The position numbers were made by a program, and so were the translations under genes. DNA of 64,000 nucleotides from a virus: the IMG/VR virus record IMGVR_UViG_3300031965_000018, positions 1-64,000 of that record. One strand, given 5' to 3'. Below are positions 10,526-40,993 of this stretch, piece by piece. Below the pieces are notes generated by a model. It saw only the letters and a program-made list of their open reading frames with translations. It was not told the DNA's origin and ran no database searches. The stretch's first letter is position 1, and every line of letters starts with the position of its first letter.

Positions 10526-10924
10526 GGGTAAGCCCGAGTAAGGTGAGGTAAGGTGGAATTTCCCGAGCCTTTCTTATATACCTTACCTACCTTACCTACC
10601 TTACTCTTGTATATCTTCTAATAGGAGAGGTAGCGGGATTGGACGGTTAAGCGAAGATTAAGGGGAGACGGATTTTCCGTAATTCGGGAAGTGCGTAGGC
10701 AAAATGGGTAATTCCCGGTAAGGCGGTAAGGCGCTCAAATTTCCTAACGATTTTCACCACCCGCCTTACCCAAACTTTCACCTTACCTACCTTACCTACC
10801 TTACCCTTCTTTCTAAACATTTCCGACCTTACCTACCTTACCGACCTTACCCTCGCCGCGAAACATTTCGCCCGCGACCACCTTACCTACCTTACCTACC
10901 TTACCCTTCTTTCTGAACATTTCC
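10526..10924. repeat. iteron field built on GGTAAGG/CCTTACC (9-bp unit CCTTACCTA)
   Basis: Arrays at 10581-10604, 10781-10807, 10827-10852 and 10881-10907. Inverted copies at 10538-10555 and 10717-10733. A 46-bp direct repeat at 10779-10824 and 10879-10924 is spaced exactly 100 bp apart with 1 mismatch. Confidence 0.85.
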
Positions 10925-34991: not shown

Positions 34992-35855
34992 ATGGCAAAA
35001 AGCAAAGTAGAGAAGACAGAAGAGAAGACGGACAACGGCACGACCGAGTTGACCACGCGCAACGAAACGGCGCTAACGTCCGCGCGGGAAGACTTCATTG
35101 AGAAGGGCGACCTCAGCGGCACCGAAGACATCACGGCCGATGACCTGCGACTGCCTCGTCTGGCCTTCGCGCAGGGTCTGTCCGAGCAAATGCAGGAGGG
35201 CAACTCCAATTACATCGCGGAGCTTCGGATGGCGGAGATGTTCAACGATCTGACGAGCGAGATTTACGGCAAAGGGCCGATGACGTTTGTGCCCGTGAAG
35301 CGCGAGGTGCGCTACATCGAGTTCGCGCCGCGTGAGGACGGCGGCGGGCTGCTCGACCCGGACGTGCCGCCTGGCGACCCGAGGACAAAATGGAGCGTGG
35401 TGGACGGGAGACGAGTGCCGCCAGCGGCAACGAAGTTCGTGGAGTTTGTCGTCCTGCTTCTGAAGGGCGAGGACCCGCCCGAGCCCATCGTGCTCTCGAT
35501 CAAGGACACGAATAAGTTCAATCGACGCGCGGCGGAACGCCTCACCGGGTTCATCAAGCTCCGGCAGAAGCCGATCTATGCCGGACTCTACACCATCCAG
35601 TCCAAGAACGAAAAGAACGACAAGGGCACGTTTGCGGTGCCCGTTATTGGCAACGCCGGGAATCTGGACGACAAGAACGTGCCCGATGAGATGTGGGAGC
35701 GGCACAAGAGGCTCTACGCCTACGCGCAGCAGTTCGCCGCGTCCCTCCAGGGCAAGACCATCCACGTCAACCGCGACACGACGGAGGATGACTCGTTTGA
35801 TACGGACGCCTACGATGCCGCAGTGACGGGAGCGGCAACTCGACCGGATATGTAG
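34992..35855 (+). CDS. hypothetical protein (possible ssDNA-binding/recombination-associated)
   Basis: 287-aa ORF with an acidic tail (EDDSFDTDAYD), as SSB-like proteins have, within the replication arm. The functional call is weak. Confidence 0.35.
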   Translation: MAKSKVEKTEEKTDNGTTELTTRNETALTSAREDFIEKGDLSGTEDITADDLRLPRLAFAQGLSEQMQEGNSNYIAELRMAEMFNDLTSEIYGKGPMTFVPVKREVRYIEFAPREDGGGLLDPDVPPGDPRTKWSVVDGRRVPPAATKFVEFVVLLLKGEDPPEPIVLSIKDTNKFNRRAAERLTGFIKLRQKPIYAGLYTIQSKNEKNDKGTFAVPVIGNAGNLDDKNVPDEMWERHKRLYAYAQQFAASLQGKTIHVNRDTTEDDSFDTDAYDAAVTGAATRPDM

Positions 35856-35946: not shown

Positions 35947-36558
35947 ATGGCAACGCGTAAGCGACCGTTCAAGTTGGCCCCGCCGCTGAAACCTAAACCG
36001 CCATCTCAACTGCAAGAGGGTCGTCTTGTCTGGCGAAATGGATATGCGTACGTATGTAAACCCGGTTATATACGGCACGGGCGAAAACCTTCTGGTTACG
36101 TTAAACGAGCAGATCTCGTACTTGAAGAGAAACTCGGGCGTAAACTTGAAGCCAATGAAATTGCCCATCACAAAAATCATGTACGTTCCGACGATCATCC
36201 GGACAATTTAGAAGCAAAAGACTTTCGTCTGCATACGAGCGACCACTATTTGGAAACTGTCGTATACCGCTCTGATTCAAAGCTGATGGCAGAGATTGCC
36301 TTGCAACTTGGGCGTGCAGGATACGTTCGACGCTATGAAGTTCGTATGCCGAGAGACCGTGGCGGGAAGGCGTTACGCATCGCGTTTGCGCACCCCACTA
36401 AGCAAATCGCTCTATTGACAAACTCGAATACGAGGAAAGCGAAAATCCTGCGCGAAATGGGGTGGACGGTGTACGATCTAGAGACGGGCGATTTTCTTCC
36501 GAAAATCGGCCGTCCTTACGGCTCTAGGCAAGGCGATTCCGAGGTCGATAAAGGGTAA
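35947..36558 (+). mobile_element. HNH homing endonuclease gene
   Basis: IAHHKNHVRSDDHPDNLE is an HNH motif. The segment is visibly more AT-rich than its neighbours and is free-standing between gene blocks. Confidence 0.7.
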
Positions 36559-36656
36559 GTTTGGGCCGTTTCTCAGGCGTATTACAAATAAAGACGGCCG
36601 TAAGTCCTTTAAACGGAGTGAGATGCAAAATATATCGACGAATGGTGATTTAGTGC

Positions 36657-36685
36657 TTTACTTGGTTGGTGCCCTCGCGTAATAT
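36657..36685 (+). promoter_or_regulatory. sigma70-like promoter for the hammerhead operon
   Basis: TTTACT-N17-TAATAT. It is followed by about 250 nt of purine-rich leader with no ORF. Confidence 0.45.
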
Positions 36686-36933
36686 CTCGTTGTTGGTTGT
36701 CGTGGAAACCGACCGGGACGGTGACGAGCCGAGATTACCGAGGCGAGGGAAACTCGCGTAGGGTCGAAGCTAGAAAACTCCGAAACCGAAGATAGGCCGA
36801 TAGGCGCCAGGGATGAAAGTTCAGTCCAAGCCCGGACGTAGGCGCGAATCGAGGATCGACGGGAACGACGGACGGTAGCTGAGGTGTTACGCGGAAGAGG
36901 CCGAGGCTACTCGGAAGTCGGGAAAGTCGAATC

Positions 36934-37017
36934 GAGGAATACGAAACGATATGCGAGCGGTTCACTAGAACGGTTCGCGTATCGTCGCCCGACGAAACGG
37001 GCCTGATGAGGTTCCTC
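36934..37017 (+). ncRNA. type II hammerhead ribozyme motif, copy 1
   Basis: GAGGAAU-AC-GAAA, a 12-bp stem III hairpin, UC, GCCCG-ACGAAA-CGGGC, then CUGAUGAG-GUUCCUC. Predicted cleavage after C36986. Confidence 0.8.
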
Positions 37018-37019
37018 AA

Positions 37020-37364
37020 ATGGCTAACGCACGAACAATGCGACTTCAAGCGGCAGAACGGAAGCAACAGGACGCCGCCAAGAATCTTTCTCACCGCTAC
37101 TCCGTCGTCATTGTTCGGTTGAACGGGATGGTGATCTCGGGCGAAGTCGATGGCTTCTGGAAAGACGCGGTAGCGCGGGCGGAGGAAATGCTGAACGATA
37201 CGTTCTACTTCGACGCCCATGGTTACAAGACGGAAGGCGACCCGCGTGCGAATCCTTTCCGTGTGATCGTGGCGATGAGCGACGGTAGGACGACTGAAAC
37301 CGCGTCGTGCTATGAAGTCGGTTGGGATAACGGCCGGAGGATGTTAATGTCCGGTCGTCGGTAG
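37020..37364 (+). CDS. hypothetical protein (cassette 1)
   Basis: 114-aa track ORF. ATG lies 3 nt after ribozyme copy 1, and the stop TAG is embedded in copy 2. Confidence 0.55.
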   Translation: MANARTMRLQAAERKQQDAAKNLSHRYSVVIVRLNGMVISGEVDGFWKDAVARAEEMLNDTFYFDAHGYKTEGDPRANPFRVIVAMSDGRTTETASCYEVGWDNGRRMLMSGRR

Positions 37365-37433
37365 GCATACGAAACTCCGATGGGCCCTGACGGGATCGGA
37401 GTCGCCGGACTTAACCGGCCTGATGAGGTGCCT
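37363..37433 (+). ncRNA. type II hammerhead ribozyme motif, copy 2
   Basis: AGGCAU-AC-GAAA, CUCCGAU...AUCGGAG, UC, GCCGG-ACUUAA-CCGGC, then CUGAUGAG-GUGCCU. Cleavage after C37403. Confidence 0.85.
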
Positions 37434-37434
37434 T

Positions 37435-37632
37435 ATGTGGAAATGGAAGCTGGTAGTAAAGAAGACCGGACGAACGTGGGGTGTTTTTGACGAAGTGTCT
37501 GGTGACCTCGTTGAGGGCGGTTTCTTTCGACGCAGTGCGGCCGAGCAGTCTTTGCGCGATTGGGAAAAACAACTTTCGCAGGAAACAGCGGAAGACGCCG
37601 AGCGCGCGGCCGGTTGGGACCCCAACCCGTAG
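37435..37632 (+). CDS. hypothetical protein (cassette 2)
   Basis: MWKWKLVVKKTGRTWGVFDE... I take ATG 37435, not the track's ATG 37423, which is the AUG inside CUGAUGAG. Confidence 0.5.
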   Translation: MWKWKLVVKKTGRTWGVFDEVSGDLVEGGFFRRSAAEQSLRDWEKQLSQETAEDAERAAGWDPNP

Positions 37633-37692
37633 GCATACGAAATGGCGGAACAGTCCGCCATCGCCGGACTTAACCGGCCTGATGAGGTGCCT
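37631..37692 (+). ncRNA. type II hammerhead ribozyme motif, copy 3
   Basis: AGGCAU-AC-GAAA, UGGCGGA-ACAG-UCCGCCA, UC, GCCGG-ACUUAA-CCGGC, then CUGAUGAG-GUGCCU. Cleavage after C37662. Confidence 0.85.
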
Positions 37693-37693
37693 T

Positions 37694-37900
37694 ATGACTT
37701 TGATTAACACGACAACTCGCAACGCTTTCTGGCGCATCTCGCGCAAAGGTTCTACCGTCTACGTCATGTGGGGTCGAATCGGAACGCGCGGGCAGACCCG
37801 GCAGATCCGGTTCGCCAACGAGACTTCCGCCCGGACGTTCGTAGAGACTCGGATCGACTCCAAGATCGAGGATCGAGACTACGTGCCCGTGAGCCGGTAG
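37694..37900 (+). CDS. WGR domain protein (cassette 3)
   Basis: MTLINTTTRNAFWRISRKGSTVYVMWGRIGTRGQTRQIRFANETSARTFVETRIDSKIEDRDYVPV contains the WGRIG-x-GQ signature. Confidence 0.6.
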   Translation: MTLINTTTRNAFWRISRKGSTVYVMWGRIGTRGQTRQIRFANETSARTFVETRIDSKIEDRDYVPVSR

Positions 37901-37960
37901 GCATACGAAACTCCGCGATAGCGCGGAGTCGCCCGAATGGACGGGCCTGATGAGGTGCCT
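37899..37960 (+). ncRNA. type II hammerhead ribozyme motif, copy 4
   Basis: AGGCAU-AC-GAAA, CUCCGCG-AUAG-CGCGGAG, UC, GCCCG-AAUGGA-CGGGC, then CUGAUGAG-GUGCCU. Cleavage after C37930. Confidence 0.85.
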
Positions 37961-37961
37961 T

Positions 37962-38171
37962 GTGAATTTGAACTCGATCTCCTCCGATCTCCATCGTTAC
38001 AAGCAGGCGACGTTCCGAGTCGCATCTAGCGTCTACGCCGTAACCGGATCGGTGCGACTCGGTTATTCGCTTTGGCTCCTCTCGGAAGGTCGCTTCGGTC
38101 CAAAGCGTGATTTGATCGCAACATTTTCAACCCTCCACGCACTGGCCGGTTACGTCGAGGATAATTCATAG
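37962..38171 (+). CDS. hypothetical protein (cassette 4)
   Basis: GTG 37962 lies 1 nt after the ribozyme (VNLNSISSDLHRYKQ...). The stop TAG is fused to copy 5. Confidence 0.45.
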   Translation: MNLNSISSDLHRYKQATFRVASSVYAVTGSVRLGYSLWLLSEGRFGPKRDLIATFSTLHALAGYVEDNS

Positions 38172-38229
38172 GAACTAGAAACGGGCCGCTCTGGCCCGTC
38201 GCCGGAATAAACCGGCCTGATGAGGTTCC
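38171..38229 (+). ncRNA. type II hammerhead ribozyme motif, copy 5 (variant subclass)
   Basis: GGAAC-UA-GAAA, CGGGCC-GCUCU-GGCCCG, UC, GCCGG-AAUAAA-CCGGC, then CUGAUGAG-GUUCC. Position 11.1 is not the usual C. Cleavage after C38200. Confidence 0.65.
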
Positions 38230-38232
38230 AGC

Positions 38233-38625
38233 TTGACCCTCTTGAATGAGAGACTCCCAATGAACAAGCAGACGATTCGTTTCAACAACAACGGTGCTTC
38301 CCTCGACGTGCTGGCGCGGAACGGCAAGACCGGGATCAGCGTTTTCCTCCGGGTCAAGTCGCCCGGCCAGCGGGCGGTCATCGGGTGCCGTAACGTCTTC
38401 CTGCCGGCCAATGAGAAAACGGCGCAGGAGACGTTCGACCGTCTCGTGGCGGATGCCGAGTCGAAGGGCTGGACCCGAAAGACGGCCGGCACCGGCGCCA
38501 CCGCGTCGCAGTTCTCGGAAGTGCCCCTGCCGACGGCGCTGCCCGCGTCGGTGCCGCTCGCGCCGAAGGTGGTGAAGGCAAAGGTGGCCGAGGCTCCGAA
38601 GGCGAAGCTGGTGAGCCGGAAGTAA
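38233..38625 (+). CDS. hypothetical protein (cassette 5), Lys/Ala/Pro-rich tail
   Basis: 130-aa track ORF starting at TTG 38233, 7 nt after GAGG. The alternative ATG 38260 has its own GAGAG. Confidence 0.5.
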   Translation: MTLLNERLPMNKQTIRFNNNGASLDVLARNGKTGISVFLRVKSPGQRAVIGCRNVFLPANEKTAQETFDRLVADAESKGWTRKTAGTGATASQFSEVPLPTALPASVPLAPKVVKAKVAEAPKAKLVSRK

Positions 38626-38681
38626 GAGCGGACGGTAGAGCGGACGTGCACGAGTGGCGGTAGCGCACGAGTGGCGTGGGC

Positions 38682-38717
38682 GGTTCCGAGCGCAGGCAGA
38701 TGATCGCGCTCGGAACC
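38682..38717 (+). other. 12-bp perfect stem-loop between cassette 5 and ribozyme 6
   Basis: ggttccgagcgc-N12-gcgctcggaacc. No U-tract follows. Confidence 0.4.
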
Positions 38718-38724
38718 TAACGCC

Positions 38725-38786
38725 AGGCATACGAAATGGCGGACTGTTCCGCCATCGCCGGAATAGACCGGCCTGATGAGGTGCCT
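38725..38786 (+). ncRNA. type II hammerhead ribozyme motif, copy 6
   Basis: AGGCAU-AC-GAAA, UGGCGGA-CUGU-UCCGCCA, UC, GCCGG-AAUAGA-CCGGC, then CUGAUGAG-GUGCCU. Cleavage after C38756. Confidence 0.85.
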
Positions 38787-38789
38787 AGG

Positions 38790-39107
38790 ATGAAAGTCAA
38801 GATTGGATTCGACACCGTCGTGCTCGGAACCGAAGTGTGCATCGAGTTCACCCGCGTCACCGAGGGACACCGCGAAAACTACGGCGCAGATGCGGATGGG
38901 AACCGTGGGATGATGGTTGGGATGATCGACTCCGACGACGCGGAAGACATCGTTGTGACGATGCCGTCAGGAACGGAGCGCCCGTTTGAGACGCTACCGG
39001 ACGCGGCGCAGCGGGCGGTGAGACGTGAAGTGGACCGCTACCTGGAGGAGAATGAGCCGGAAGCGGAAGACGAGCCGGAGCGGGACTGGGATGAGGAGAC
39101 GTCATGA
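38790..39107 (+). CDS. hypothetical acidic protein (cassette 6)
   Basis: MKVKIGFDTVVLGTEVCIEF... starts 3 nt after the ribozyme, at an internal ATG of the track ORF. Confidence 0.5.
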   Translation: MKVKIGFDTVVLGTEVCIEFTRVTEGHRENYGADADGNRGMMVGMIDSDDAEDIVVTMPSGTERPFETLPDAAQRAVRREVDRYLEENEPEAEDEPERDWDEETS

Positions 39108-39277
39108 AACTGACCGTTGAGATTCGACGCGGGCCGGGTAAGAAACCGATGCGGGTAGAGTCGCCGCTGGACCAGGGAGTCACCCTCGCCCAGCTACGCG
39201 GGTTGTTGATGGCGGAGATTGCCCTCAATGAGCTACCCTCGAAACTCCGGTTTCACTTTCACGTGGTGGAGGACTGA
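39104..39277 (+). CDS. possible 57-aa protein
   Basis: MKLTVEIRRGPGKKPMRVESPLDQGVTLAQLRGLL... ATGA-coupled. Below the track cutoff. Confidence 0.35.
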   Translation: MKLTVEIRRGPGKKPMRVESPLDQGVTLAQLRGLLMAEIALNELPSKLRFHFHVVED

Positions 39278-39361
39278 ATGGATTCAATCTGGACATCGTT
39301 TATACTTGGAGGTATCTGGGCACTACTCTTGATGATCTACATTCGACTCGGAAAGCGCTGA
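39278..39361 (+). CDS. possible 27-aa membrane peptide
   Basis: MDSIWTSFILGGIWALLLMIYIRLGKR. The stop TGA is fused to ribozyme copy 7. Confidence 0.3.
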   Translation: MDSIWTSFILGGIWALLLMIYIRLGKR

Positions 39362-39419
39362 GGAACTAGAAACGGGCCGCTGGGCCCGTCGCCAGAATGA
39401 ACTGGCCTGAGGAGGTTCC
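39362..39419 (+). ncRNA. type II hammerhead ribozyme motif, copy 7 (variant subclass)
   Basis: GGAAC-UA-GAAA, CGGGCC-GCUG-GGCCCG, UC, GCCAG-AAUGAA-CUGGC, then CUGAGGAG-GUUCC, where N7 is G. Cleavage after C39390. Confidence 0.65.
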
Positions 39420-39420
39420 C

Positions 39421-39636
39421 GTGAAGTTTTTCGTAACAGCTATTCAACGCAGTCGCTCGACGCGCCGACGATGCGGCAAGGCGCACTCGTTCATCGCAGA
39501 GGCCCGAGGTAACGACTTGAGCGCTATCGAGGGCATCATTGAGCAGCGCTGGGATGACGAGCATCCCGGCTCGCATACCTTTCTGGAGATCATCGATCTG
39601 CGAGAGGCGAGAGAAGCGAGTGAGGTGACGTCATGA
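39421..39636 (+). CDS. hypothetical protein (cassette 7)
   Basis: GTG 39421 lies 1 nt after the ribozyme (VKFFVTAIQRSRSTRRRCGKAH...). Confidence 0.45.
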   Translation: MKFFVTAIQRSRSTRRRCGKAHSFIAEARGNDLSAIEGIIEQRWDDEHPGSHTFLEIIDLREAREASEVTS

Positions 39637-40103
39637 TGCGCGTCAAACTATTCGAGGTTCGGGACCGCGCGACGTTCATCGCGGTCTTGGCGGTGAAGCT
39701 CACCGCAGATGTACAACTCACGACAGACGATCTGGAGTTGGTCGGAGACGAGCGAATCGGGTCTCGCAACCCAGAGCACTTCCTACTCCGTCGCGCAGGC
39801 TATGCGAGTGCAGCCATTGCACCGTCATGGACCGGCGAGCCTTACGTGCTCGTGGCGAAGCTGGAACGCGCGCACTACGATCCCTTCAGCTGGGACTCGA
39901 TGACGATGGTTGGGGCCCACCGACATATCCGCGACAATTGGGACAAGCTATCGAGTGGTGATGTCATTGACGTCGAGTTTCTGCGCGGCGAGACGGACCA
40001 ACCGAAGGCATCCGAGTGGGTCACGGTATGGAACCGCTACACTACAATGCCTGACCCTCGACTCCCTGACCCGAACGACGTCAGAGAAACGGATGGAGAC
40101 TGA
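39633..40103 (+). CDS. hypothetical protein
   Basis: 156-aa track ORF, ATGA-coupled to its neighbours. Confidence 0.5.
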   Translation: MMRVKLFEVRDRATFIAVLAVKLTADVQLTTDDLELVGDERIGSRNPEHFLLRRAGYASAAIAPSWTGEPYVLVAKLERAHYDPFSWDSMTMVGAHRHIRDNWDKLSSGDVIDVEFLRGETDQPKASEWVTVWNRYTTMPDPRLPDPNDVRETDGD

Positions 40104-40993
40104 TGTTCATCACCCCAATGCTCGCGGCATCGATGCCGAAGACGCCCGTCACGATTCACCCGGGCGTCTTCTTGGTCGAAGAAAAGTATGATGGCCACCG
40201 ACTCGTCACTCACGTCGATAGCGACCACAGGGTTGCGGCGTGGAGTCGCTACGGGCTAGAGCGCGTTCTGCCCGTTCACGTCGTCAACGCCATTGCTCGG
40301 CTCTCGCCGGGCATCTACGATGGCGAACTGATCGTGCCGGGCAAACGATCCTACGGCGTCACTGAACTGGTCAATGGCTCCGAACTCGTCTATACCGTAT
40401 TCGACGTTCTGGAACTGCTCGGAACCTCGACCATCGCGAGCACTTACATGCAACGTCGGGCCTACCTAGAGGAGATGTCGAGGCATCGGCTCTTCAACGC
40501 CGACGGGATCCAACTGGCCGAGGTCACACCCGTTGACTCGGCAGACGACGTGCGGCGCTATCTGGATGCCGTCTGGAAGCGGGATGGCGAGGGACTAATC
40601 CTCAAGCGACTCGGGGCGCGCTACGTGCCCGGCAAGCGCCCGAAGGACGCCTGGATCAAGATAAAGGCATTGCGCTCGGCGGTCCTGACCGTCATCGGGT
40701 TCATTCCCTCGAAAGGACAAATCAATAACCGTGGGCCCTATGCGACGGTGGCGCTGCGTGATGACGAGGGCCATGAGACGACCGTCAAGACGCTCAACGA
40801 TGCGGAGTGTCGGAGGTTTGAGGAGGAAGCACCAAGGCTCCCAGAGATTGATGAGTTCTCACTCGGTCGGGTTTGCCCCGATCACCCCGCCATCGGCCGG
40901 AAGCTACGTATCGAGTATCAAGAAAGAACACCGGATGGGAATTATCGCCACCCTAGGTGGGATCGCTGGCACACCACAGATGATGAAGAGTAA
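40103..40993 (+). CDS. ATP-dependent DNA ligase
   Basis: Motif I EEKYDGHR, motif III YDGELIV, motif IV EGLILKRL and motif V AWIKIKA. Confidence 0.85.
   Translation: MFITPMLAASMPKTPVTIHPGVFLVEEKYDGHRLVTHVDSDHRVAAWSRYGLERVLPVHVVNAIARLSPGIYDGELIVPGKRSYGVTELVNGSELVYTVFDVLELLGTSTIASTYMQRRAYLEEMSRHRLFNADGIQLAEVTPVDSADDVRRYLDAVWKRDGEGLILKRLGARYVPGKRPKDAWIKIKALRSAVLTVIGFIPSKGQINNRGPYATVALRDDEGHETTVKTLNDAECRRFEEEAPRLPEIDEFSLGRVCPDHPAIGRKLRIEYQERTPDGNYRHPRWDRWHTTDDEE

Follow-up and report, generated by a model that had tools for sequence, protein, structure and literature searches.

Natural type II hammerhead ribozymes were described by Perreault et al. in 2011 as elements that cluster around genes in prophages and phages (PMC3088659). 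Constructs of about 2 kilobases (kb), taken from three clusters other than the one considered here, cleaved in vitro, and the authors proposed that such ribozymes process long transcripts into gene-length messenger RNAs (mRNAs) (PMC3088659). According to a 2019 review, the function of bacterial and phage hammerheads was still undefined (PMC6765202). Here we describe a cluster of seven type II hammerheads located on the plus strand between positions 36934 and 39421 of a 64,000-nucleotide (nt) viral sequence (positions 1 to 64,000 of IMG/VR record IMGVR_UViG_3300031965_000018), referred to below as the window. The locus resembles the published clusters in ribozyme class, in topology and in the way in which copies flank single genes or short gene blocks. 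In the published consensus, however, stem II is short and loop I forms a pseudoknot with the 3' tail, whereas the variant found here has a stem II of 6-9 base pairs (bp), an extra A or AC, and no pseudoknot signal. Moreover, the word "translation" is absent from the main text of the 2011 study, whereas in this phage the stop codon, the Shine-Dalgarno (SD) sequence and the start codon are merged with the ribozyme. On balance we favor the view that the seven hammerheads act as intercistronic punctuation, in which stop, SD and start are merged and cleavage favors translation of the cut RNA.

All seven copies share one order of elements. From 5' to 3', a strand of 5-7 nt (AGGCAU, GGAAC or GAGGAAU) is followed by AC or UA, GAAA and a hairpin, and then by (G/A)UC, a 5-bp hairpin with a 6-nt loop, CUGA(U/G)GA, and a G with the complement of the first strand. 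The CUGANGA motifs start at 37003, 37420, 37679, 37947, 38217, 38773 and 39407. Read from this order, loops close stems I and III while stem II is open and carries the 5' and 3' ends of the element, and the topology is therefore type II. The hammerhead core is defined by C3 U4 G5 A6 N7 G8 A9, G12 A13 A14, an A15.1-U16.1 pair and H17 (not G); the full catalytic core was found in 7/7 copies, comprising CUGA(U/G)GA, GAAA, the A-U pair closing stem III and a GUC or AUC cleavage site. Minimum-free-energy folds gave a three-way junction in every copy. A structural descriptor combining the core and the three stems matched seven times in the window, whereas 100 dinucleotide-preserving shuffles gave 0.02 matches on average, and a sequence pattern allowing up to three mismatches matched exactly these seven copies, with zero matches expected. 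Among the copies, stem I covaries (GCCGG/CCGGC, GCCCG/CGGGC and GCCAG/CUGGC) and stem III occurs as four unrelated sequences. Most stem positions show several Watson-Crick pair types when the seven copies are taken with 55 relatives, evidence that is independent only for the variety of pair types and for the outer pairs, since the descriptor itself demanded 4-5 pairs. Pairs were counted by position from each junction, as a MAFFT alignment of the seven copies set stem III out of register. We conclude that the ribozymes are genuine and belong to a known class. Their components, and those of the flanking open reading frames (ORFs), are as follows.

36934-37017, plus strand: copy 1, with 5' strand GAGGAAU (36934-36940), linker AC, GAAA (36943-36946), a long stem III, predicted cleavage after C36986, stem I (36987-37002), core CUGAUGA (37003-37009) and 3' strand GGUUCCUC (37010-37017); the SD-like GAGG is at 37008-37011 and the start, ATG 37020, agrees with an independent gene call.
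37362-37437, plus strand: copy 2, with the ORF A stop TAG (37362-37364) overlapping 5' strand AGGCAU (37363-37368), linker AC, GAAA (37371-37374), predicted cleavage after C37403, stem I (37404-37419), core (37420-37426) and 3' strand G+GUGCCU (37427-37433); the SD GAGGUG is at 37425-37430 and ATG 37435 is the called start of ORF B.
37630-37696, plus strand: copy 3, with the ORF B stop TAG (37630-37632), 5' strand (37631-37636), GAAA (37639-37642), predicted cleavage after C37662 (AUC), core (37679-37685), 3' strand to 37692 and ATG 37694.
37898-37964, plus strand: copy 4, with the ORF C stop TAG (37898-37900), GAAA (37907-37910), predicted cleavage after C37930, core (37947-37953), 3' strand to 37960, candidate start GTG 37962 and an in-frame core AUG at 37950.
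38169-38229, plus strand: copy 5, a UA-linker variant, with the ORF D stop TAG (38169-38171) fused to GGAAC (38171-38175), GAAA (38178-38181), predicted cleavage after C38200, core (38217-38223) and 3' strand GGUUCC (38224-38229); its gene likely starts at ATG 38260.
38725-38792, plus strand: copy 6, with 5' strand AGGCAU (38725-38730) lacking a stop (cAG), GAAA (38733-38736), predicted cleavage after C38756 (AUC), core (38773-38779), 3' strand to 38786 and ATG 38790.
39359-39423, plus strand: copy 7, a UA-linker variant with N7=G, with TGA (39359-39361) fused to GGAAC (39362-39366), GAAA (39369-39372), predicted cleavage after C39390, core CUGAGGA (39407-39413), 3' strand GGUUCC (39414-39419), a strong SD GAGGAGGU (39409-39416) and GTG 39421.

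The core nucleotides G8-A9-G10.1-G10.2 read GAGG. Four copies extend this to GAGGUG, and copy 7, which has G at N7, extends it to GAGGAGGU. A first-pass annotation, made from the sequence of the window, had proposed that this GAGG serves as the SD of the downstream gene, and the interval that it gave, 37361-37437, is exact for copy 2. With the starts that it listed, the spacing from GAGG to start in copies 1-7 is 8, 6, 6, 6, 7, 8 and 5 nt; the position upstream of each listed start stands, with 5-8 nt lying in between. All copies thus carry at least 4 nt complementary to CCUCC of the 16S ribosomal RNA at 5-10 nt before a start, which is how an SD was defined here. As the start codon follows stem II after only 1-3 nt, there is no room for an alternative SD, and the statement that no other SD is present also holds. 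The annotation had further placed the whole GAGG within stem II; this is right for the two G residues of stem II and the nucleotides that follow, while G8 and A9 belong to the catalytic core. SD-led initiation seems to be the norm in this phage, as other starts carry GGAG, GAGG or GAGGUG 5-10 nt upstream (e.g., GAGGUGA before 39633). Comparison with related ribozymes, given below, strongly supports a second role of the core GAGG as SD.

The stop and start codons at the ribozymes belong to the following genes, several of which rest on independent gene calls for the source contig, deposited in public collections as ENA ERZ27256875 (69,164 bp) and used here as a check of start codons.

37020-37364, plus strand: ORF A.
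37435-37632, plus strand: ORF B, 65 amino acids, called with start 37435.
37694-37900, plus strand: ORF C, a stand-alone WGR-domain protein of 68 amino acids (Pfam, 2.7e-12).
37962-38171, plus strand: ORF D, uncertain.
38260-38625, plus strand: ORF E, start set by gene call and homologues.
38790-39107, plus strand: ORF F, start in agreement with the gene call.
39104-39277, plus strand: ORF G.
39278-39361, plus strand: ORF H, uncertain, 27 codons.
39421-39636, plus strand: ORF I, start in agreement with the gene call and a homologue in contig L007.
39633-40103, plus strand: ORF J.
40103-40993, plus strand: DNA ligase.

Upstream of the ribozymes, the TAG codons at 37362, 37630 and 37898 overlap AGGCAU by two nt, and TAG 38169 and TGA 39359 are fused to GGAAC. 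The arrangements that had been described earlier, UAG within gUAGGCAU in copies 2-4 and UAG or UGA fused to GGAAC in copies 5 and 7, are thus present in the sequence. The broader statement that every ribozyme begins at a stop codon is borne out for copies 2-5 and 7 and fails for copies 1 and 6, which have neither an upstream ORF ending at the ribozyme nor a stop (GAGGAAU and cAGGCAU); copy 1 is preceded by 377 nt of non-coding sequence. The stop therefore belongs to the gene rather than to the ribozyme.

Regarding the starts, the independent calls begin genes at 37020, 37435, 37694, 38790 and 39421, and contain no gene at 37962-38171 or 39278-39361. Homologues encoded on contigs that carry related loci (designated by L-numbers such as L001 and L004) point the same way: ORF C aligns from residue 1 with a protein of L004 whose start also directly adjoins a hammerhead, and ORF I aligns from residue 1 with its L007 homologue (MKFAVTAV vs MKFFVTAI). 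The starts at 37020, 37435, 37694, 38790 and 39421 proposed by the first-pass annotation are accordingly backed by gene calls and homologue N-termini, while its TTG 38233 is probably wrong, because homologues of ORF E in L014, L019 and L004 align from Met10, the tenth codon, and the gene call starts at ATG 38260; the gene after copy 5 thus probably begins at ATG 38260. ORF D is an orphan whose sole database relative is the copy on a near-identical contig, called from the core AUG at 37950 as a protein of 73 amino acids; its codon usage is best in the proposed frame. The stop upstream of copy 7 belongs to ORF H, which by codon usage is not clearly coding. In copies 2-4, the AUG inside CUGAUGA (37423, 37682 and 37950) is in frame with the start 12 nt downstream. 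This AUG was considered as the true start and rejected, as N7 varies among relatives (U/C/A/G), it is not preceded by an SD, and the N-termini of homologues coincide with the downstream start; the core AUG is probably an annotation trap.

Scanning viral contigs with sequence patterns and filtering the matches with the structural descriptor yielded 105 non-redundant hammerheads of type II, which often form clusters of 5-11. A comparable scan of genome contigs gave almost only chance matches, with 1-3 of 120 passing the descriptor, and provided no host assignment. Two classes can be distinguished. Class A (46 members) has the canonical stem II of 3-5 bp, and the next start mostly lies 17-58 nt after A9, with an SD of its own, for instance AGGAGG, AAGGAG or GGAGG; L001 illustrates this class. 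In class B (55 members, those of the window included), stem II is 6-9 bp long and has A or AC added beside G12, loop I has 6 nt and follows the consensus AAUNRA, and the 3' strand is GGUKCC or GGGUUC. No pseudoknot between loop I and the 3' tail was found in the window copies, and across the 55 class B members the longest complementary run was 2.82, against 2.85 in shuffled tails. Class B is set apart here from the consensus of Perreault et al. as published, rather than from the alignments of their Dataset S1.

The two classes also differ in where translation would be initiated. In class B from viral contigs, the start lies 6-11 nt after A9 in 37/52 cases, and the best match to the anti-SD overlaps G8-G10.2 in all 38 members whose start lies 5-14 nt after A9 (mean -7.2 kcal/mol). 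Among class A members with distant starts, by comparison, none of 32 overlaps the core and all 32 have a separate SD (mean -7.4 kcal/mol). A metagenome scan, made with a pattern that ended at the end of stem II and hence did not include the start, added 46 further class B members. In these, the start lies 6-11 nt after A9 in 38/44 (14% at random positions, p about 2e-26), and the upstream stop ends between -1 and 10 nt before GAAA in 26/31 (24% at random, p about 3e-12), TAG being the stop in 22 of the 26. Viral and metagenomic contigs combined, 96 related ribozymes are followed by an ORF, and in 75 of these the start lies 6-11 nt after A9. On these comparative grounds, the fusion of stop, ribozyme, SD and start is conserved within a structurally distinct variant, class B.

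A possible but doubtful alternative is that this fusion reflects compaction without gating. Cleavage would then only set the stability of the RNA segments, the overlap of stop, SD and start would be a by-product of squeezing in an element of 55-80 nt, and downstream translation would be independent of cleavage, with stem II breathing or being opened in some other way. That stop codons abut the ribozyme in both class A and class B is consistent with such general compaction, as is the fact that class A relatives punctuate their genes likewise with a separate SD. The ribozyme sequence itself, on the other hand, changes with the position of the start: 10.2=G is found in 43/46 ribozymes with a near start versus 25/47 with a far start (p 1e-5), and N7=G, which gives GGAGG, in 7/46 versus 0/47 (p 0.006), both values ignoring that the copies share ancestry. 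The two near-start members from L169 that carry U at 10.2 both have N7=G. The embedded GAGG(UG) is, moreover, as strong as free-standing SDs. This enrichment and this strength argue that the ribozyme sequence has been shaped by ribosome binding where the start is adjacent. Finally, a helix of 6-9 bp together with core tertiary structure over the SD is of a size that represses initiation in riboswitches and engineered aptazymes (PMC12192606).

Other layouts were seen among the related contigs. L240 (854-3291, minus strand) carries eight class A hammerheads in about 2.5 kb, with GAAAGGA about 15-25 nt 3' of the ribozymes and starts roughly 28-37 nt after A9, a layout in which genes are punctuated alike while the ribosome-binding site is separate and A-rich. 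L026 (8733-10860) contains a different set of type II hammerheads, followed on the 3' side by a conserved CAUCAGCACUGACGAGU-like box instead of a start codon; this box may be a second, overlapping element.

In the punctuation that we favor, a long rightward transcript of the replication and small-gene module would be cut by its seven self-cleaving hammerheads. In this variant the ribozyme makes up the entire intergenic region, with the upstream stop in or against the 5' strand of stem II, so that the upstream cistron would retain its stop after cutting. G8-A9-G10.1-G10.2 (plus U and G), 5-8 nt before the start, would be the sole SD of the downstream gene; as the same nucleotides are used, ribozyme fold and 30S binding would be mutually exclusive. 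The RNA is predicted to self-cleave after C17, whereupon the stem II of roughly 6 bp would dissociate. The upstream mRNA would then have the stem III hairpin and a 2',3'-cyclic phosphate as its 3' end, and in the downstream mRNA a 5'-OH and the stem I hairpin would come first, then CUGAUGAGG..., a single-stranded SD and the start. The first-pass annotation's account that the products are held together by stem II alone, and of the chemistry of their ends, follows from the sequence and from established hammerhead chemistry. Type II is the sole hammerhead permutation that leaves a hairpin end on both products. Cleavage would thus irreversibly expose the SD and give each cistron protected ends of its own. 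The predicted processed units are ORFs A, B, C, D and E individually, F-G-H, and I-J-ligase; no ribozyme is present between genes with overlapping or directly abutting stop and start codons (F/G, G/H, I/J and J/ligase).

Energetically, the stem II duplex in trans was computed at -8.0 to -9.0 kcal/mol, corresponding to a roughly micromolar dissociation constant, for which reason the cleavage products should, on this model, separate at cellular mRNA levels. G10.1, G10.2 and the nucleotides that follow pair with the 5' strand, and this masking strand resides on the 5' product after the cut at C17. Opening the region from C3 to codon 4 costs 5.5-10.1 kcal/mol in the uncleaved RNA versus 3.7-8.6 kcal/mol in the free 3' product by nearest-neighbor modelling. 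The modelling lends little backing to a strong switch, and ribozyme-gated translation is a plausible conjecture. The overall role would be mainly constitutive processing and insulation rather than that of a regulated switch. A stricter form, which we regard as tentative and rather improbable, holds that G8, A9, G10.1 and G10.2 serve first catalysis and then ribosome recruitment, making cleavage an obligatory translation licence for each cistron, timed by folding versus terminating ribosomes. If true, this would provide a gene-by-gene switch or insulator that needs no host factor.

The placement of the stops also opens a route to coupling that needs no cleavage, as a ribosome terminating on a stop within stem II would also unwind the helix. 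Under this translational coupling, which we judge improbable, the terminating ribosome frees SD and start, and cleavage is secondary or competing. The stop lies inside or abuts the 5' strand in 5/7 window copies and 26/31 metagenomic relatives; a ribosome at a stop codon covers roughly 12-15 nt downstream and would here cover the whole 5' strand and GAAA; and folding of the RNA brings stop and start to one end of stem II. Copies 1 and 6, however, keep the SD/start layout with no upstream ORF ending there, the fully conserved catalytic core shows that cleavage itself has been selected, and nothing would be left to couple after fast cleavage and dissociation.

Several observations weigh against cleavage-favored punctuation. 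The best Rfam score for Hammerhead_II (RF02276) was 25.4 bits against a threshold of 37 (copy 5, E=0.74, permissive mode), and at the gathering threshold (37 bits) no match was found in the window or in seven related loci. Because canonical type II relatives in L001 and L240 likewise score below threshold, this is a matter of model sensitivity and not a difference in kind. Where the canonical hammerhead has a G10.1-C11.1 pair directly beside A9 and G12, the stem II junction departs from the canon here, by an additional A or AC and by U or C opposite G10.1. The linker from the helix to G12, AC in five copies and UA in two, can be read either as a C11.1-G10.1 pair with a bulged A or as U opposite G10.1 with an inserted A; as both forms recur in many relatives, they are probably tolerated. 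Ribozyme activity is here assumed from conservation. About 3-4 kcal/mol are needed to open GAGGU, whether the RNA is uncleaved or present as the free 3' product, and the gain in accessibility after cleavage is small, 0.5-3.7 kcal/mol in a nearest-neighbor model that ignores hammerhead tertiary structure, so that the true masking may be larger; this limited difference between uncleaved RNA and 3' product fits compaction without gating. At copy 5, the probable start lies 37 nt after A9 (36 nt between A9 and AUG), and the gene beginning at ATG 38260 has no good SD of its own. To these are added the shared ancestry that the enrichment statistics ignore and the choice of CCUCC as anti-SD, which may not be the 3' end of the host's 16S ribosomal RNA.

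The stem II strands further allow a scenario in which segments between neighboring hammerheads are joined into circular or spliced RNAs, being brought together via these strands and ligated by the reverse reaction or by RtcB. Copies 2, 3, 4 and 6 have identical stem II strands (AGGCAU/GUGCCU), and the copies within one phage are homogeneous in L019 and L004; since strands are shared between copies, the ends of a segment could rebuild a hybrid hammerhead. RtcB takes as substrates the 5'-OH and 2',3'-cyclic phosphate ends that cleavage leaves. Matching strands, however, occur in only 2/6 of the inter-ribozyme segments of the window, and Perreault et al. sought such products in other clusters and found none (PMC3088659). 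We consider this scenario very improbable.

The window encodes the gene content of a tailed phage, including terminase, portal, primase-helicase, DNA polymerase, helicase, HNH endonuclease and ligase, as well as a long tape-measure-like ORF. A megablast search of GenBank phages with 20 kb of the window gave no match, and hence no close relative there. The ribozyme-bearing stretch (plus strand) is flanked by the HNH gene (35947-36558) and the ligase gene (40103-40993). Searches against PHROGs and Pfam recognized none of the small ORFs except ORF C (WGR), a homologue of which is encoded in the ribozyme-rich contig L004. The same module encodes a Pam3_Gp34-family protein (PF23977; phrog_2402) at 34992-35855; this Gp34-like protein and the ligase have homologues in L014, L022 and other ribozyme-rich phage contigs.

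Two spacers around the ribozymes contain additional features. Between the HNH gene and copy 1 lies a purine-rich non-coding gap of 377 nt (36559-36935), in which no sigma-70-like promoter was found and whose fold stability is ordinary (z = -0.87). The 11-nt direct repeat CGAATCGAGGA occurs at 36845 and 36928, its second copy overlapping the 5' strand of copy 1. The 98-nt spacer between ORF E and copy 6 (38626-38724) carries a 17-nt tandem repeat (38640-38673) and a perfect 12-bp hairpin, GGUUCCGAGCGC/GCGCUCGGAACC (38682-38717), without a U-tract on its 3' side. Because its arms resemble the GGUUCC/GGAAC strands of stem II, this hairpin may be the remnant of a decayed ribozyme or a processing site. 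Elsewhere in the window, a weak Rfam match to skipping-rope RNA was seen at 619-725 on the minus strand (23.6 bits against a threshold of 36.7, E = 0.48), and a run of GGTAAG/GTAG-like short repeats lies at 10760-10840, minus strand, directly upstream of a small ORF at 10820.

In L257 and L260, homologues with 49-53% identity to ORF B are accompanied by intergenic repeats other than hammerheads: a long hairpin CAGGACAGAAUAAG...CUUAUUCUGUCCUG in L257 (about 1005-1065, 1300-1345 and 1925-1950) and the motif GUGCUACAUUGUACUUGC in L260 (about 25-50 and 325-350). A separate, clear SD follows every copy in L260 and the last copy in L257, and no Rfam family matched these repeats. They may be RNase III-type sites or new ribozymes with the same intercistronic job.

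Comparable punctuation is known from phage T7, in which host RNase III makes intercistronic cuts in the early polycistronic mRNA, producing gene-length mRNAs with terminal hairpins, and this processing can alter the translation and stability of neighboring cistrons. In T7 a host protein enzyme acts on hairpins that lack a catalytic core, whereas here the RNA would cut itself. That ORF B homologues elsewhere are flanked by repeated hairpins instead of hammerheads hints that hairpin repeats and hammerheads could be interchangeable solutions. A close natural parallel for a link to translation comes from fungal RNA viruses, whose untranslated regions contain type I hammerheads with cleavage required for translation initiation (bioRxiv 10.1101/2024.05.16.594327). 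These ribozymes likewise fill the whole intergenic untranslated region and place the cleavage site a few nt before the next ORF; they differ in their eukaryotic host, cap-independent initiation, type I topology and lack of an SD, as compared with the SD-led initiation of the double-stranded DNA phage studied here.

Among synthetic systems, hammerhead aptazyme switches that mask an SD in bacteria were reportedly built by Ogawa and Maeda and by Wieland and Hartig, both in 2008. As in the arrangement proposed here, engineered devices pair the SD in a ribozyme helix and free it by self-cleavage, and a cleaved hairpin 5' end insulates the transcript and raises expression. The engineered devices are synthetic type I/III ribozymes in which an added extension masks a separate SD, whereas the present ribozymes are natural, of type II, and use nucleotides of the core and stem II as SD, with no ligand control evident. 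That hammerheads which free a masked SD work in bacteria has been documented (PMC12192606), and the RiboJ insulator raises downstream gene expression (PMC6206723).

A literature search, incomplete in coverage, returned no paper joining the type II hammerhead with the Shine-Dalgarno sequence or describing their fusion. Clustered phage type II hammerheads have thus been known since 2011, and the stop-ribozyme-SD-start fusion appears to be undescribed. Gene callers and RNA annotators mishandle such loci, as Rfam misses all copies and one public call starts in the core AUG. What the thousands of hammerheads in bacteria and phages do biologically has been a standing question since 2011, and the variant described here gives specific predictions that reporters can test; a ribozyme physically tied to stop, SD and start sharpens the vague idea of polycistronic processing. 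If cleavage licenses translation, these hammerheads would represent in nature what ribozyme insulators and SD-masking aptazymes are among synthetic devices, and would offer a compact, host-independent part for operon design.

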